Below are positions 43,793 through 61,380 of a stretch of 64,000 bases of DNA, piece after piece. The notes under the pieces were generated by a model that did not search any database, was not told the DNA's origin, and was given only the letters and a program-made list of their open reading frames with translations. Within the stretch, counting starts at the first letter, position 1. Each line of letters opens with the position of its first letter. Source of the DNA: an uncultured Eubacteriales bacterium. Lineage in GTDB: Bacteria; Acidobacteriota; Aminicenantia; Aminicenantales; Aminicenantaceae. The stretch is taken from contig CAZYBE010000011.1 of the NCBI GenBank assembly GCA_964645765.1, forward strand, positions 7,897 to 71,896. Direction: 5' to 3'. Position numbers and translations under genes: made by a program.

Positions 43793-43848
43793 TTATAAGG
43801 AACGCCCCGATATTTTATTAGTTAGTTTATCATATTGGCTTGGCTTAA

Positions 43849-43877
43849 AAGTTAAGCAAGTGTGAAGATTCTGTCAA
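43849..43877 (-). promoter_or_regulatory. sigma70-type promoter for kinase 5
   Basis: Minus-strand TTGACA (43872-43877), 17-nt spacer, TAACTT (43849-43854); overlapped by a gtgaag/gtcaag 11-bp repeat. Confidence 0.55.
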
Positions 43878-43957
43878 GCTATTGTGGAGGCACAAAAGTC
43901 AGCTTAGAGGAGGAAATTGACAAAAACGGCTAAATTGAATAAAAATAAAAACACGGT

Positions 43958-44032
43958 GGGCGATTAACTCAGTGGCAGAGTGCTACCTTCACACGGTAGA
44001 AGTCACAGGTTCAAATCCTGTATCGCCCACCA
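43958..44032 (+). tRNA. tRNA-Val (anticodon CAC)
   Basis: GGGCGAT/ATCGCCC acceptor stem, CTACC-TTCACAC-GGTAG anticodon arm, GGTTCAAATCC T-arm, encoded CCA; 75 nt. Confidence 0.95.
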
Positions 44033-44328
44033 ACCTTATTCCGAAACGCCAACCTTTTTCGGGGCCCCTCCTAATTGGCTAGGAGGGGTAGGGATGGTTA
44101 ATATTAATAATTTAAAGTCTTAAGGGCGTTTTGGGGTGTCTTCACGTCGAGCTTATTTTTATCCCTCTTTATAGGCCAAGGGGGATTAATAATTTTTAGA
44201 TCAATTCTTGGAGGCGTTTCGGGCCATAAACAATTGCGCAATCCCCCGGCCCGGCAAAACGACAGGTGTGCCCAAAATCGGGCTGGGAAGCTGGCCGACG
44301 ACGTGATGAAGATGCCTTTCGCTCCGAC

Positions 44329-45258
44329 CTACTTTTTGCCCAACACGAACAGCAATCCAGGATGCGCGCGCAATTCCTGATTGACGCGCATGCCACGAAA
44401 TAGCAGCCTTACGTCCGGATTATCACTTTCACATGACTTCAGGAACGCCTTGTCGTCTCGGTTCAGGACAAACAGCTTCCTGTAAAACTCCTCGACCTGT
44501 TTCTTTATGTCTCCGAGCTCGACACGCGTTGCCTGTGCCTCCCTGAGAAACGGACCCAGAGACCGGACGAATGCCTTCTCGTCATACTTCTCAATGCTGC
44601 GCAACAGGCTATCGAGGCGAGGCTCTCTCTTCGCCAAGACAAGGTAGAACATCATGAGCTTTCTTAGCAGGACCTTTCTCATCTTCATCCTGGAAGCATG
44701 AAAAATGTCATGAATGTCGCGCGGGTAAAGCCGTTCCACCATCGCTTTTGTCTTCATCGCCGTGATCTCTTCAAGCGAGTAGGTCTTTACTTTGAAGACG
44801 GGGAGGTCGAAGACGTGACCGAAGCGCTTTGAAAGCGTGCCTGCGACTGGAACTCTTTCGAGAAAATTGATTTCCAGCTTCACGCTGTCCGCCGGGCCCG
44901 CGAGGCTCCGGTAGCGGAGGAGAAACCTTTCCATGATGTAGGAGCCCGGCTTCAGATCAAACCCGTAGTCCAACGATCCCGCAAGGCGCGTTATCTCTTC
45001 CCGCACATGCGGCCGGATCTCCAGCATTCTTTCCTTCTTGATTGCGCCGACGAAATTGAAGTCCAGGTCGATGGACAGCCTCGGCAGGTCGAGATAAACG
45101 AAATTCAGAGCCGTCCCGCCCTTGAGGGCCAGTGCTTTCGCAAGCACTTCATTTTCCTGGACCGCGGCCAGTAGTCTCGTGATGTGATAGGCCTTCTCAA
45201 GAAAAACGGGATTGAAACCCGTATCCCTCTGAAGCTTCTGCAACGCTTTCAGGTCCAT
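44329..45258 (-). CDS. abiEii: AbiEii-type nucleotidyltransferase toxin (type IV TA); start revised to 45258
   Basis: LEKAYH, ALKGGTALNFVYLDLPRLSIDLDF, VKLEINF, K..AMVERLYPRDIHD; ATG immediately after the AbiEi stop. Confidence 0.85.
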   Translation of the reverse strand: MDLKALQKLQRDTGFNPVFLEKAYHITRLLAAVQENEVLAKALALKGGTALNFVYLDLPRLSIDLDFNFVGAIKKERMLEIRPHVREEITRLAGSLDYGFDLKPGSYIMERFLLRYRSLAGPADSVKLEINFLERVPVAGTLSKRFGHVFDLPVFKVKTYSLEEITAMKTKAMVERLYPRDIHDIFHASRMKMRKVLLRKLMMFYLVLAKREPRLDSLLRSIEKYDEKAFVRSLGPFLREAQATRVELGDIKKQVEEFYRKLFVLNRDDKAFLKSCESDNPDVRLLFRGMRVNQELRAHPGLLFVLGKK

Positions 45259-45259
45259 T

Positions 45260-46108
45260 TCAAACGCCCTCCGTCGCCTTCTCCAGCCTCGGATCGACAA
45301 TGACCTTCCATTTGCCGACGAATTTCCCACCCTTCCCCTTTTCGAAATAGTACGTGCTTTGTGATAGTGAGGCCTGAAGCTCTTCAAGGAATGCGTCCGG
45401 CGTCTTGACCGGTTCCCTCAGCAGGTCGAAAACGTAGCCCGCGCGGTTGAGCAGGATGCGCTTTCCCGTCCTCTTGATGTAGCCGAGCAGCCTGTCCCAT
45501 TTCACTTCGCGCGCATCCATGAGGCACCTGACGATTTCCTCGTATCCGCCCGCGTACTGAGGCATACGCAGGACATCGACTATGGTCCTTTCCAGATCCG
45601 AGACCGCGACCTTCTCGTCCCTGTACTTGATTTGCTCGATGCCAAAGAATTCCTTCTCCCGGAGCCTGACGGGACGGATGACGCTTCCCTTATAGGTGAG
45701 GACTTTCGCCTGCTTCGTGGTCGTGACGTAGACTTGGGAGGCCGCCTGCTGCGCGAGGCCGTGGAGGGCCAGGGCCGTGTAATATGAGAGGAAATAAGGC
45801 CACGCAAGGTGCGCCGCCACAATGACCGGGTCCTCGGCATAGCTTCCCCTGTCGTGGACGATGTGCGCCGGGATCCGGACGTAGAGGTTTGCCTTCACTT
45901 TTCCCAGTGCGCCTTTCTGCTCCATTTTCCTCAGGACGCCGTAGGCTTGCAGCTTCGGGATTCTGAGAAGCTTCATCGCCTCCTCCGCTGTGACGATTTT
46001 CCTGTCCTCGGCTTCCAGGAGGAAGTAGAGCTTCTGTTCCAGGCCCGAAAGCTTCTTCAGGACGTACATTTTCTTAACTCTGTCTTTCATATTTATCCAT
46101 CCTGACAT
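45260..46108 (-). CDS. abiEi: AbiEi-type antitoxin / transcriptional regulator
   Basis: N-terminal wHTH, FLSYYTALALHGL, VSDLERTIVD..R.P.Y.GG.EE; upstream of AbiEii. Confidence 0.85.
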   Translation of the reverse strand: MSGWINMKDRVKKMYVLKKLSGLEQKLYFLLEAEDRKIVTAEEAMKLLRIPKLQAYGVLRKMEQKGALGKVKANLYVRIPAHIVHDRGSYAEDPVIVAAHLAWPYFLSYYTALALHGLAQQAASQVYVTTTKQAKVLTYKGSVIRPVRLREKEFFGIEQIKYRDEKVAVSDLERTIVDVLRMPQYAGGYEEIVRCLMDAREVKWDRLLGYIKRTGKRILLNRAGYVFDLLREPVKTPDAFLEELQASLSQSTYYFEKGKGGKFVGKWKVIVDPRLEKATEGV

Positions 46109-46114
46109 AATTTT

Positions 46115-46195
46115 TAAGTCAAAGTTAAATATGTTCTTAACTTCGTATTAAATATTATATCATAACAGACTAATTTATAAGTTAAAGTTAAATAT
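46115..46195. promoter_or_regulatory. 18-bp direct repeat upstream of abiEi (candidate operator)
   Basis: taagtcaaagttaaatat (46115-46132) and taagttaaagttaaatat (46178-46195). Confidence 0.5.
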
Positions 46196-46437
46196 TGTGC
46201 CTGTTTCTGATGCCGTTCCCTCCCTTTTCGATATAGGATTTTCGGCTTTTTCGTGTCCGGGGGTTTATACGATTCTGTCCACTCCACTGTGCCCAAAGTG
46301 TGCCCAAAAATATCTAGAGAAATCAAAAAATCCATCAAAATATCGAAAAATATCGCAATCCGGAAAGCCTGGAATTTCGCGTTTTTACAGGGGAAATCCC
46401 TTATTTTCTTCGCTTTCTCCCCTTTTTGCGTAACCTG

Positions 46438-46477
46438 CACACGGTAGAAGTCAGAGGTTTAAATCCTGTATCGCCCA
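46438..46477 (+). repeat. attR-like copy 1 of the tRNA-Val 3' half
   Basis: cacacggtagaagtcagaggtttaaatcctgtatcgccca versus the tRNA 43990-44029. Confidence 0.9.
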
Positions 46478-48401
46478 TTTTCTTTTTTACCAACAAGATA
46501 CCAAAAGGGACGATCTTGCATATTTTAACGCAGCGGCCATGATTGTGGCTAAACGCCCTTTCCCTGCCCTCGATAGCTTCCACAATAAAGTGATTTAAGC
46601 TCAGACAATACCTTTCAGGGACCAAACTCTTTCTAATTGCCATAAAGAAACTTGATCCCTCGGGTTGAGGAAGCCGAGCAGGAAGAAATATGAGTCTCTC
46701 CGGGAATGACTTCCATTCTGGTTTCGAGACCACCGCAGTTCCGTTTGATAAGCAGGACATGGAAATCTTTCCAGGGCTGGATAATGTTCTGTTCATCGAA
46801 CTCGTCGACCGCAGAACCAGAAATCGCGCAGGGATTCCGTCGTGGAAGAAGGAAAAAAGCATAAACAATATTGAGCTGCGATTTCAGCTTTTTATTTCGC
46901 GAGCCCGCATAACCGGGAAATCTTGCTCTTCCGCTTATTTTAAGTATAATTAAAGAAATTGCACGGAGAGGACAAAGTTTTGTCTATAATTAAAAAATAC
47001 ATCGAACGGCCGGAATACATTAAACGTATCACTCCTTTTGTTGACAAGCCCACCATCAAAATTCTCGTGGGACAACGTCGGGTCGGCAAGAGCTTCCTTC
47101 TTTACCAGATCATGGATGCGCTAAGGAAAAGGGGCATCCCCGAGAGTCGAATCGTTTACATCAACAAAGAGCTGCATGACTTTGAAGACATCAGAAACGA
47201 CCGCGATCTCATAGCCTATATAGACCGTCAGTGCAGGACAGGGAAGACGCTCCGTCATGTTTTCATCGATCAAGTCCAGGACATCGCGCATTTCGAGAGA
47301 GCTCTTAAATCGCTGATCGCTGCCGGTGGGACCGACCTCTATTGCACCGGGAGCGACGCCCGAATGCTTTCAGGAGAGCTGGCGACCGATCTCAATGGCC
47401 GCTATGTAGAAACAGTTATTCACGCCCTGTCTTATTTAGAGTTTCTTGATTTTCACCGATTAGAATCCTCTACAAAATCCCTCGAGGCCTACATACGGTT
47501 GGGCGGTCTTCCGTTCCTGATCCATCTCCCTCTTAAAGAATCGACAGCCTACGACTATCTGCGCAATATTTACGGCACAATCCTATTCAAGGATGTTATC
47601 CGCCGGCACCGCATCAGGAATCCGGCCTTTCTTGAGCGGCTCGTCCTCTTCCTTGCCGATAATACAGGCAACCTTGTCTCGGCCAAAAAAATCAGTGATT
47701 TTCTTAAGTCACAAAGGATGAAGATCTCCCCGAATCTTGTCCTGGACTATCTCGCCCACTTAGCTCAATCCTACTTTGTCCATCAAGTGCGCCGCTCCGA
47801 CGCGTATGGGAAAAAAATATTCGAGATCGGCGAAAAATACTATTTCGAGGACCTCGGGCTGCGACATGCGCTCGTAGGCTACCGCCAGGCAGACATCCAA
47901 AAAGTCATCGAGAACCTCGTTTTCATGCATATGAAAATCGCCGGATACGATGTAACCATTGGGAAGCTCAATGGGGGAGAGATCGACTTCATCTGCAGGA
48001 GACGTGATGAGAAGATCTATATTCAGACGGCATACCTCCTTACCGACCAGAAGACTAAGGACCGGGAATTTTGGCGCCTTCTGAATATAAAAGACGATTA
48101 TCCCAAATTCGTTATCTCTATGGACCCGATGGCCAGCGGTGATATCCTGGGTATCCAGCATCTCTCCCTGATCAACTTTTTACAAAAAAAATGGTGAAGG
48201 AGAAATAACTGTCCTGTGGCTAAAATTGTGGCTAAGCCCTGGATAAAAGAGGCAGAACCAGGTTAAGAGAGGATAAAACAGGAAAAAATAGGCTGATTCA
48301 AGCGTATTGATAATAAAAACAATAAGATAGAAAAGACTTTTCAAGATTTTGTGCACTCTACACACGGTAGAAGTCACAGGTCCAAGTCCTGTATCGCCCA
48401 C
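46478..48401. mobile_element. Mini genomic island 2 at tRNA-Val, no integrase
   Basis: Lies between att copies 1 and 2; single cargo gene. Confidence 0.75.
46980..48197 (+). CDS. AAA+ ATPase (AAA_14-like) with a C-terminal DUF4143/PD-(D/E)XK-like domain
   Basis: Walker A GQRRVGKS; Walker B VFIDQVQ; TGS; KYYFEDLGLR; ENLVF; EIDF...YIQ. Start uncertain (TTG 46980 after ggagag). Confidence 0.85.
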   Translation: MSIIKKYIERPEYIKRITPFVDKPTIKILVGQRRVGKSFLLYQIMDALRKRGIPESRIVYINKELHDFEDIRNDRDLIAYIDRQCRTGKTLRHVFIDQVQDIAHFERALKSLIAAGGTDLYCTGSDARMLSGELATDLNGRYVETVIHALSYLEFLDFHRLESSTKSLEAYIRLGGLPFLIHLPLKESTAYDYLRNIYGTILFKDVIRRHRIRNPAFLERLVLFLADNTGNLVSAKKISDFLKSQRMKISPNLVLDYLAHLAQSYFVHQVRRSDAYGKKIFEIGEKYYFEDLGLRHALVGYRQADIQKVIENLVFMHMKIAGYDVTIGKLNGGEIDFICRRRDEKIYIQTAYLLTDQKTKDREFWRLLNIKDDYPKFVISMDPMASGDILGIQHLSLINFLQKKW

Positions 48402-48408
48402 TAACCTT
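48361..48408 (+). repeat. attR-like copy 2 of the tRNA-Val 3' half
   Basis: cacacggtagaagtcacaggtccaagtcctgtatcgcccactaacctt matches the tRNA end plus its trailer. Confidence 0.9.
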
Positions 48409-48660
48409 TACGCAAGATACTTACCTGCTTGGTGGCTTCCCCTTATACGTCAGGGGAGGTGGAAGGGATTAAAAGCTAAGACAGACGTCTTGAAAAATGT
48501 CTCAAGAAATTAAGCCCCGAAACGTCGTCCTGCTTTAGGCCTTCTTTTATTGCTAAGGGGGATAAGGGGGCATAACAAATTTTAGTTAGATTCTTGAGGG
48601 CGTTTCGGATTTTGCGCCATTGCGCCATCCATCAAAATGACAGGTGTGCTCAAAATGACG
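48409..48660. repeat. Sequence homologous to the left end of island 1
   Basis: Shared hairpin (cccct..agggg) and blocks ttttat..aagggggat, ttcttg.ggcgtttcgg, caaaa.gacaggtgtgc.caaaat with 44065-44280. Confidence 0.6.
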
Positions 48661-48727
48661 AAATCGTCTTCATCAAATATTCACAATTTCTTCATATTTC
48701 CTTAACGCAGACGCGATACAGTGGAGT

Positions 48728-49756
48728 GTGAACAAGAAGCAAGTTTCCCTCCTGACTGAACGCCCGCAAGCCCGGAACCTCAATATCGAGGAAGCAAGAA
48801 ATTTGTTGGCAGAGGGCTGGGTAGCTGCCGACCTCCATGTTCATACACTTCATTCGTACGACGTCATCCCAACCCGGCTGGTGGATCCTTTGACGCTCTA
48901 CCGGAAAGCGCGGCGGCTCGGCATGACCTATATCACCTTTACCGATCACGACTCTATGGACGCTTATGACCAAATCGGATGGACTCGAGAAGGCCTTGTC
49001 CCAGCCGTCGAGGTCACGATCTTGGATCCCGATAAAGTGGGGCACACTGTCCATATCAATGTCTACGCTCTCGACCGCGGCCAATTTGGCGAAATCTTGA
49101 AAATCGCCCGTCTTGACCAGAACATCGAGCGGTTGGTTTCCTATTTGAAGGACGAGCATCTCCCCTACACATTCAATCATCCGTTCTGGCACGAACCACG
49201 GGAGAAGCCCAATCTTCGGGCCATCCTCGATATCGCCGACCTCTTCCCCGTTTTGGAATATAACATGGGACGGATCGCCCGAATTAATCGACAGGCGCTT
49301 AGGCTGGCCCAGGCGAGGAGGCGGGGCATCGTGGCGACGACGGATACCCACGTCGGCGAGATCGGCAGGGCTTTTACCATCGCCCGGGGCGACACATTCA
49401 TGGAATTTTTTGACCAAATTCGATTGGGGCAATCCTTCATTGTTCCAGCCGACCTGAACATCTCTCGCTTAAAGGGGGAAACGACAATCCGCATCCGCCA
49501 ACTTTTTAATAAATCCGGCTGGCTATATGCCAAAGACTGGTTCGCAATTAACACCGGGAGTGCGATCCTCGACGGAATCATCGCTCGGCTGGCACAGGCA
49601 CGCCCTGAGACACAGGGGCTCGCCAAAAAGATTCTCAAAATAATTCTAGAGGGCGCGTCCCGCTCAGGAATCCCCGGCTCTCTATATCTTCGATCCCAAC
49701 AAAACCTAGCGGACCAAATTCACGGACTCCTGGAAAGTATGGAGACCGTTACTTGA
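48728..49756 (+). CDS. PHP-domain metal-dependent phosphoesterase
   Basis: ADLHVHT..S, ITFTDHD, VPAVE, NHP, ATTDTH. Confidence 0.8.
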   Translation: MNKKQVSLLTERPQARNLNIEEARNLLAEGWVAADLHVHTLHSYDVIPTRLVDPLTLYRKARRLGMTYITFTDHDSMDAYDQIGWTREGLVPAVEVTILDPDKVGHTVHINVYALDRGQFGEILKIARLDQNIERLVSYLKDEHLPYTFNHPFWHEPREKPNLRAILDIADLFPVLEYNMGRIARINRQALRLAQARRRGIVATTDTHVGEIGRAFTIARGDTFMEFFDQIRLGQSFIVPADLNISRLKGETTIRIRQLFNKSGWLYAKDWFAINTGSAILDGIIARLAQARPETQGLAKKILKIILEGASRSGIPGSLYLRSQQNLADQIHGLLESMETVT

Positions 49757-61224: not shown

Positions 61225-61380
61225 AGTGGGCTCAGGCTGGGTGTCTCGAAAACCGTTTGAAGGCTGAGCGGGCATGGTTCCTCGACCAAAGGGAGAGGAG
61301 AGCGAAGCCTGAAACCGAGCCGCTTTTGACTCGCTGGGGCAAAAGCGGCGTGTTTTCGAGACACCCAGCCTGAGCCCACT
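61225..61380. mobile_element. 156-bp MITE-like element with a perfect 29-bp terminal inverted repeat
   Basis: agtgggctcaggctgggtgtctcgaaaac (61225-61253) / exact reverse complement at 61352-61380; internal hairpin cgcttttg...caaaagcg. Confidence 0.75.

Follow-up and report, generated by a model that had tools for sequence, protein, structure and literature searches.

A tandem array of probable integrative-element remnants at the tRNA-Val(CAC) gene of an uncultured Aminicenantes bacterium

How could the 3′ half of a tRNA gene come to be repeated downstream of the gene itself, with small cargo-bearing units that lack a recombinase gene lying between the copies? This question is raised by a stretch of 64,000 nucleotides, hereafter the window, of contig CAZYBE010000011.1 (assembly GCA_964645765.1, positions 7,897 to 71,896, forward strand) from an uncultured bacterium of the Aminicenantaceae (Acidobacteriota), in which a tRNA-Val(CAC) gene is followed by two such units, islands 1 and 2, and by the left arm of a third element. 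Our results indicate that the locus is probably a tandem accretion of integrative elements decayed by deletion, comparable to cis-mobilizable elements (CIMEs). The phenomenon as such is known; what is new is this family of elements and the scale of its stripped units in environmental Acidobacteriota.

Repeated tRNA-Val(CAC) halves and a third element

The open reading frames (ORFs) of the window were checked against Pfam and PADLOC, tRNA genes were predicted by ARAGORN and RNA families by Rfam, and integrases were sought by the Pfam scan and by a locally built integrase profile (hmmsearch). The tRNA-Val(CAC) gene at 43958-44032 (plus strand, as are the three core copies) is the sole tRNA in the 64-kb window, scores 70 bits in Rfam, and is by its sequence a functional gene; no other RNA family was recognized by Rfam in 43800-48800. 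A 38-nt probe from its 3′ part matched at 43992, 46440, and 48363, with 2 mismatches at each of the latter two sites, and had no match in 100 dinucleotide-preserving shuffles. Core copy 1, the attL core, is the 3′ part of the tRNA itself from 43990 (core model match at 43987-44031), core copy 2 (46438-46477) is a displaced tRNA 3′ half standing as attR of island 1 and attL of island 2, and core copy 3 (48361-48403) is another displaced half, the attR of island 2. An initial annotation, made from the sequence alone, had proposed that the tRNA half recurs at 46438 and 48361 and delimits two units, and this was borne out, with start-to-start spacings of 2448 and 1923 bp. The integrase-type boundary that it had placed in the anticodon loop also holds, since unbroken identity among the aligned copies runs from the anticodon, at tRNA position 33 within that loop, and ahead of it the displaced copies have a partial likeness to the anticodon stem on its 5′ strand. 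Core copy 2 has a broken T-stem pair together with C56>T and core copy 3 has T55>C; because these substitutions fall at positions that working tRNAs conserve, the displaced cores are pseudo-halves.

The initial annotation had closed the structure at 48408, which proved too early, as the arm of a third, island-1-type element reaches 48656. This left arm, A′ (48404-48656, plus strand), ends at an arm repeat, TGTGCTCAAA (48645-48654), is 72-76% identical to 44033-44278 in island 1, and matches the model of the corresponding arm family (family A). The end of A′ is the exact start of conserved chromosomal sequence, and homology of the window with all relatives starts only at about 48649-48667. By its sequence, A′ is the stub of an older element, of which the body, the distal core, and the native flank have been deleted. 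The first chromosomal gene to the right of the array encodes a PHP-domain protein (48728-49756, plus strand), and its homologues were found in 37 genome loci, nearly all from Aminicenantes/Acidobacteriota metagenome-assembled genomes, with identity up to 87%. At one of these relatives, L002, the PHP gene follows tRNA-Val(CAC) at a distance of 356 bp and nothing separates the two, which makes it an empty site relative to the window. The idea that A′ is native tRNA-Val flank copied into island 1 was considered and rejected, because the flank in L002 (285 nt) is unrelated, A is an element arm found family-wide, and the end of A is integrase-derived. In the same L002 contig (5888-11470), a short right arm, its repeat doublet directly against a core copy, occurs 5.4 kb downstream of tRNA-Val, with an A-like piece after it. 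The tRNA and this displaced core enclose the PHP, DUF6938, glycosyltransferase, and transglutaminase genes, though these look chromosomal.

Homology between 43980-44280 and 48351-48656 reaches about 250 nt past the tRNA, which would in principle be enough for homologous recombination. The repeats could then have arisen apart from site-specific recombination, either by segmental duplication of the tRNA 3′ end and its flank or by RecA-mediated Campbell insertion of circles homologous to tRNA-Val and its flank over about 300 bp. We consider this highly improbable, since every copy has its left boundary at the anticodon loop, the supposed 250-nt flank is an element arm with integrase-derived sequence and not native chromosome, core copy 2 is not followed by that flank, and the arm repeats adjoin integrase genes in many unrelated elements. 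The window is apparently metagenome-derived, and repeats of 40-45 nt can mislead short-read assemblers, so that the array might instead be an assembly artefact in which repeated cores concatenate strain variants with one island each. However, an independent Logan contig (L038, run ERR4334733) runs at 100% identity from within the P arm of island 1, through island 2 with the cores on either side of it and through A′, into the start of the PHP gene, and thus crosses cores 2 and 3 with identical sequence; moreover, the three cores differ from one another, and comparable multi-unit arrays occur in many independent contigs. An artefact of this kind is scarcely credible.

Probable origin of the islands by loss of an integrase

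Island 1 (about 43990-46437) is the 2448-bp unit between core copies 1 and 2, and its composition suggests what it may have been before. Its left (P′) arm, the A module (44033-44278, plus strand), contains a hairpin (44066-44089) and a single repeat, TGTGCCCAAA, at 44267-44276, 235 nt past the tRNA, where intact relatives have a doublet; when this arm is aligned with its compact counterpart in the full-length element L175, one 11-nt repeat unit is absent from the window. The right (P) arm module (46287-46419, plus strand) has retained its doublet, TGTGCCCAAAGTGTGCCCAAA (46288-46308, with TGTGCCCAAA at 46288 and 46299, about 130 nt before core 2), followed by phased ATC(G/A)AAA repeats (46322-46358) and a block, ACAGGGGAAATCCCTTATTTTCT (46387-46409). 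At the inner end of the left arm lies a minus-strand integrase pseudogene scar (44231-44329) of the last ~33 codons (translation GRSERHLHHVVGQLPSPILGTPVVLPGRGIAQL), from which all catalytic residues have been deleted. In a tblastn search of the window with the integrase P0014, amino acids 333-367 matched 44323-44231 (minus strand) at 54% identity (E 5e-5), and the scar corresponds to the family tail just past the catalytic tyrosine motif. The tail SERHLHHVVxQLPSPxLGTPVVLPGRGI agrees with the integrase family and is likewise kept in P0001-P0012, and the DNA at 44240-44320 can be aligned to L175 over its left arm and the 3′ end of its int. From the scar and the L175 alignment it follows that island 1 has lost xis and int codons 1 to about 332 and kept its attachment arms, and it is therefore a deletion derivative. 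The earlier statement that the units contain no recombinase gene thus stands in one respect, as no Phage_integrase ORF was found in the units or among the other plausible ORFs of the window, and has to be amended in the other, as island 1 carries this 33-codon scar.

Intact members of the integrase family make clear what was lost. A search with the 93-aa fragment from L159 returned only N-terminally truncated proteins (55-158 aa), and the resulting idea of a family made up of fragments only was rejected as an artefact of that short query, because profile and full-length searches yielded intact proteins. P0014, a full-length member of 385 aa found by the profile search, retrieved about 40 clusters of proteins that are 384-388 aa long and share no less than 50% identity with it; some of them are annotated as Acidobacteriota. 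All 11 contexts inspected (L170-L180) have a 73-aa HTH_17 (excisionase-type) gene before the integrase, and the integrase ends inside tRNA-Val(CAC), with a complete tRNA in 8 loci and the core at the contig end in L176-L178. Their chromosomal side has the same genes as those upstream of the tRNA in L002, and their element side has a conserved ~660-aa protein, a DUF87/TraG-like ATPase, or a pair of HTH_31 and Peptidase_M78 genes. The left arm of L175 has the TGTGCCCAAA doublet shared with the arms of island 1. In L159 (93 aa), L089, L140, and L126, fragments of one integrase lineage, independently truncated at the 5′ end, come directly after the left arm and are encoded on the opposite strand. 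The C-terminal tails of truncated integrases are encoded across the left arm and on into the tRNA core, read as its reverse complement (...LPSPxLxxxLGTxVILPGxGIxQV...VGDTGFEPVTSTV). Further 5′-truncated integrases checked in context were L168, which has tRNA-Val, 50 nt, the doublet, and a truncated int, and L169, with P, core, P′, and a truncated int.

A close but diverged analogue of island 1, by sequence, is L161, which reads tRNA-Val, A, two small ORFs, an IS630 transposase, AbiEii, AbiEi, P, core, and A, without an integrase. Its AbiEii and AbiEi homologues occupy the same position and are 54% and 59% identical to those of the window. The IS630-family (DDE_3) transposase is inserted in the L161 AbiE island at 1859-2941. 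In L061, abiEi, truncated further, comes directly after the A arm. The A module is family-wide, following tRNA-Val or displaced cores in L161, L159, L088, L090, L082, L109, L135, and others; the left-arm pattern of island 1, AAAAYGACAGGTGTGCYCAAAAT, had no match in IMG/VR.

Between its arms, island 1 carries two minus-strand genes separated by 1 nt, which is the gene arrangement of AbiE, a type IV toxin-antitoxin and abortive infection system as predicted here. The nucleotidyltransferase toxin gene abiEii (44329-45258; PF08843, E 2e-26; PADLOC AbiEii, E 5e-69, match from residue 44) probably starts at the ATG giving MDLKAL, and its stop codon (44329-44331) comes immediately beside the integrase scar; the antitoxin/regulator gene abiEi (45260-46108) matches AbiEi_1 (PF09407) in Pfam and AbiEi in PADLOC (E 1e-55). 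Upstream of abiEi (46108-46195) there are two 25-nt direct repeats, TAATTT(T/A)TAAGT(C/T)AAAGTTAAATAT, 63 nt apart, a candidate operator for autoregulation by AbiEi.

Island 2 (46438-48360), the 1923-bp unit between cores 2 and 3, has the geometry of island 1, with a single repeat ~65 nt after one core and a doublet ~125 nt before the next, and a different repeat sequence. The single left-arm repeat, TGTGGCTAA (46544-46552, plus strand), lies 66 nt past core 2, and the right-arm doublet, TGTGGCTAAAATTGTGGCTAA (48215-48235, plus strand, with TGTGGCTAA at 48215 and 48227), lies 125 nt before core 3 and 17 nt from the stop codon of the sole cargo gene, an AAA_14 + DUF4143 ATPase by Pfam (46959-48197, plus strand). 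In PADLOC the ATPase matches PDC-S01 (E 4e-140 over residues 11-410), which is a candidate defence family only, so that its role in defence is a prediction. By analogy, island 2 may be a sister type to island 1 that also arose by deletion; this descent is drawn from analogy only, because it holds no trace of an integrase and its arms are unique among the fetched loci. The defence-like character of the local cargo, as first annotated, was supported by Pfam and PADLOC for both islands (AbiEi/AbiEii and the PDC-S01-type ATPase).

Putative arm-type repeats, recognized from sequence, thus lie on both sides of the core in both islands, and exact-pattern scans of IMG/VR and metagenome contigs for their doublets gave an outside view of them. 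The island-1 doublet, TGTGCCCAAANTGTGCCCAAAA, had 5 matches in IMG/VR and at least 120 among the metagenome matches listed. In unrelated elements a complete tRNA gene (Leu, Ser, Pro, Glu, Asn, Thr, Lys) is typically present 46-70 nt away from it, and in L043, L054, L077, L115, L134, L149, and L151 its neighbour is a tyrosine integrase gene, the end of which it adjoins or overlaps. The island-2 doublet, TGTGGCTAAANTTGTGGCTAA, had 4 matches in IMG/VR and lies between a Phage_integrase gene and a tRNA-Val(CAC) 3′ half in the IMG/VR contigs L045-L047. From this association and from the classical lambda-type layout, the short repeats may be taken as arm-type integrase binding sites. Across the metagenome and IMG/VR loci L039-L167, the 22-nt doublet TGTGCCCAAANTGTGCCCAAAA is conserved beside integrases and beside tRNA genes with a wide range of specificities, in backgrounds that differ greatly in GC, a spread that suggests a large integrase clade with unusually conserved arm-site specificity.

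From these observations, we suggest that three site-specific elements would have entered tRNA-Val(CAC) successively, each through a tyrosine integrase with strand exchange in the anticodon loop, each newcomer supplying a new tRNA 3′ half and pushing the older elements and the displaced half downstream, and that deletion would then have decayed all three. The ancestor of island 1 would have belonged to the Acidobacteriota/Aminicenantes elements with a 385-aa integrase and an HTH_17 excisionase directly against the tRNA, the integrase frame running through the left arm into the core. What may remain of it is the AbiE pair between a one-repeat left arm and an intact right arm of ~135 nt, and the oldest element would now be the 250-nt left-arm stub (48404-48656). 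If newcomers always used the intact tRNA, the order of arrival would have been the A′ element, island 2, and island 1; insertion of island 2 into a pre-existing P-core-A′ junction would be equally compatible. No unit can move alone. Excision or co-transport would require a cognate integrase and excisionase from an intact relative, acting in trans or, within a composite, in cis, as is known for CIMEs.

Several observations weigh against this account. For island 2, hmmsearch with the locally built integrase profile found no integrase remnant, the minus-strand ORF beside core 2 was without a homologue in the search, and nhmmer with its arms in all fetched loci recovered only the window and its Logan duplicate. 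The doublet in L045-L047 is reversed relative to the core compared with island 2, and because of this opposite orientation they are not straightforward full-length relatives of it. For island 1, the A arm is 80% identical between the window and L161, whereas the AbiE genes are only 66% identical in nucleotides, and conservation of an arm above the genes beside it hints at continuing constraint or arm exchange and not at pure decay. Finally, no full-length element with both ends was seen, the contigs or flanks being too short (the far end of the element, with the P arm, was not reached within 7-10 kb in L175, L176, and L178), and the P module is linked to the 385-aa integrase through shared arm repeats and through islands in which a P module and a remnant of an integrase occur together (L089, L159, L169).

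Related islands and possible cassette exchange

The P module (~135 nt) was found by nhmmer in some 50 metagenome contigs, invariably with a displaced tRNA-Val core beginning ~13 nt after it, and contigs with 2-3 copies are frequent (L088, L113, L135, L052, L062, L048, L084, L152, L159). The consensus of 53 distinct units consists of the doublet, four phased ATATCGAAA-like repeats, a block, ACAGGGGAAATCCCTTATTTTCTGCGCTTT, and then CCTACACACGGTAGAAG..., with poorly conserved positions separating the blocks; as a guess, the phased ATATCGAAA repeats might be sites for the HTH_17 excisionase. Twenty-one islands are bounded on both sides and measure 1.3-10.3 kb. The locally built integrase profile found no intact integrase in the P-module loci, and several of these islands hold integrase fragments. 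The 120 cargo ORFs of the 21 bounded islands match 145 Pfam families, and related islands carry Ser/Thr kinases, TPR and PD40 proteins, beta-lactamase-fold proteins, glycosyltransferases, peptidases, and methylases. An enrichment in defence genes among 58 related islands was considered and rejected, as their cargo is heterogeneous and many of the PADLOC matches to 'PD-T4-6' are generic Ser/Thr kinase domains. The defence hotspot proposed at first is therefore limited to this locus.

The initial annotation had offered two origins for the units, minimal cassettes mobilised in trans or deletion relics of larger elements. The second is supported for island 1 by the integrase tail scar, the intact int and xis relatives, and the truncated integrases in related islands, and is carried to island 2 by analogy only. 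The survey of relatives at tRNA-Val recovered, in part, the full-length elements with int and xis from which such relics would derive, yet the cargo of the integrase-less islands is variable. The integrase-less units could form an actively exchanged pool of cassettes, in which the int and xis of an intact element would excise, circularise, and re-insert mini-islands in trans, and the P arm and core with a P′ site would be a portable recombination site, making the arrays somewhat integron-like at a tRNA gene. The 53 distinct P+core copies combine position-specific conservation with unrelated cargo, the islands go down to 1.3 kb and often come several per contig, the A arm is better conserved than the neighbouring coding cargo, and intact family integrases are common in the same kind of genomes. 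Deletion end-points, moreover, fall at or just past the P′ arm repeat in the window island 1, A′, L161, and L159. P modules outside the selection by search pattern mostly keep the doublet with 0-1 changes, some having one repeat or none.

Other features of the same islands fit such a pool poorly. A recognizable P′ repeat is kept at 23 of the 58 related core junctions and is unrecognizable at the other 35, compared with a chance background of 18%, and island 1 itself has lost one of its two P′ repeats. The integrase fragments show that such islands derive from autonomous elements through deletion, the same island was not met with in a second context, the only duplicates being assemblies of the same regions, and the 64-kb window contains no integrase. 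The conservation of the P arm is also partly a matter of ascertainment, the loci having been found by the doublet pattern. On balance, an actively exchanged pool is unlikely, and it is slightly less likely still that a large pool of cargo cassettes circulates in Aminicenantes/Acidobacteriota with a conserved ~180-nt site made of the P arm and the tRNA-Val core and is shuffled in trans by the 385-aa integrase and HTH_17 as an integron-like system of gene capture anchored at a tRNA. Tandem accretion followed by deletion remains the reading that we favor.

Two variants of the sites were observed among the related loci. A short P-arm variant, in which ~110 nt with the phased ATATCGAAA repeats and the conserved block are gone, places the doublet ~13-20 nt from the core (L057, L062, L073, L075, L081, L113:6193, L121:846, L165, and L002:11330). 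In L051, L057, L075, L098, L109, and L165, the displaced tRNA-Val core is interrupted between CACACGGT and AGAAGT by one same GC-rich, hairpin-rich sequence of ~150 nt (caagggacgagccttcggctcgccactcgcccgtgcc..., e.g., L057 578-795). The split core is misread by ARAGORN as a 94-nt tRNA-Gly(acc), and the insert, which matched no Rfam family, could be a small mobile insert or a structured element.

On either side of the array, the window has further structures. Directly adjoining and upstream of the tRNA (16568-43792, minus strand), there are five tandem paralogous modules of three genes, each encoding a histidine kinase (TPR-HisKA-HATPase, ~710 aa), a response regulator of the OmpR type (~228 aa), and a beta-propeller protein (TPR+PD40, ~700-730 aa), which is an unusual local amplification of a two-component module. 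Farther downstream (61225-61380), a perfect 29-nt inverted repeat with a 98-nt spacer lies between a response-regulator gene and a 481-aa ORF.

Significance and comparison with known systems

The locus illustrates how a variable region arises at a tRNA gene in a poorly known, uncultured phylum, where elements are whittled down to their cargo, here two defence-type modules, and the sites survive. The family behind it was previously unannotated and could be used for annotating Acidobacteriota metagenomes by its hallmarks, namely the 385-aa integrase with an HTH_17 excisionase, the anticodon-loop target in tRNA-Val(CAC), the TGTGCCCAAA arm repeats, and the 135-nt right arm. Should these sites still be in use, the arrays would amount to a cassette-exchange system.

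In a lambda-type attP, arm-type Int sites and sites for Xis and bending proteins surround the core. The putative binding sites of this family are similar in having direct-repeat doublets one helical turn apart on both arms, phased short repeats between doublet and core, and a core that lies on an inverted repeat, the anticodon stem. Integrons offer a second likeness, in that both consist of rows of units, each with one or two genes and none with a recombinase of its own, and conserved recombination sites lie between the units. Nevertheless, the array is not an integron, as it has neither an intI/attI platform nor attC hairpins, and its sites are tRNA-derived, with arm repeats and the scars of a former integrase.

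Closer in organization are the tycheposon islands of Prochlorococcus, in which tRNA-integrated elements are stacked and newcomers push older ones inward (bioRxiv 10.1101/2020.12.28.424599). The two share a tyrosine recombinase, partial tRNA copies as separators, fragmented integrases that mark older events, and cargo for defence and niche adaptation. They differ in integrase family and host phylum, the units of the window are without a linked replication module, and the decayed units described here are very numerous and keep a long, strongly conserved right arm of ~135 nt.

The closest counterpart is provided by the CIMEs, first described for ICESt1-related elements of Streptococcus thermophilus, which have lost integration and excision genes and kept attL and attR (Pavlovic et al. 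2004 and Bellanger et al. 2011, summarised in PMC5704250) and as a rule stand in tandem with elements that arrived later by integration into an att site (PMC5704250). Compared with these CIMEs, the present units have an uncultured Aminicenantes/Acidobacteriota host, a target in the anticodon loop of tRNA-Val(CAC), a missing P′ arm repeat in island 1, and parental elements whose conjugation would be no more than a possibility, with only a DUF87/TraG-like ATPase in some cases. With regard to an origin by deletion, island 1 has the scar and intact int/xis relatives, and island 2 gave no sign in either direction. In other respects, the likeness extends to the organization as a whole, as attL and attR are kept, int, xis, and transfer genes are lost, the units stand in tandem at the 3′ end of the target gene, and a partner would be needed for movement.

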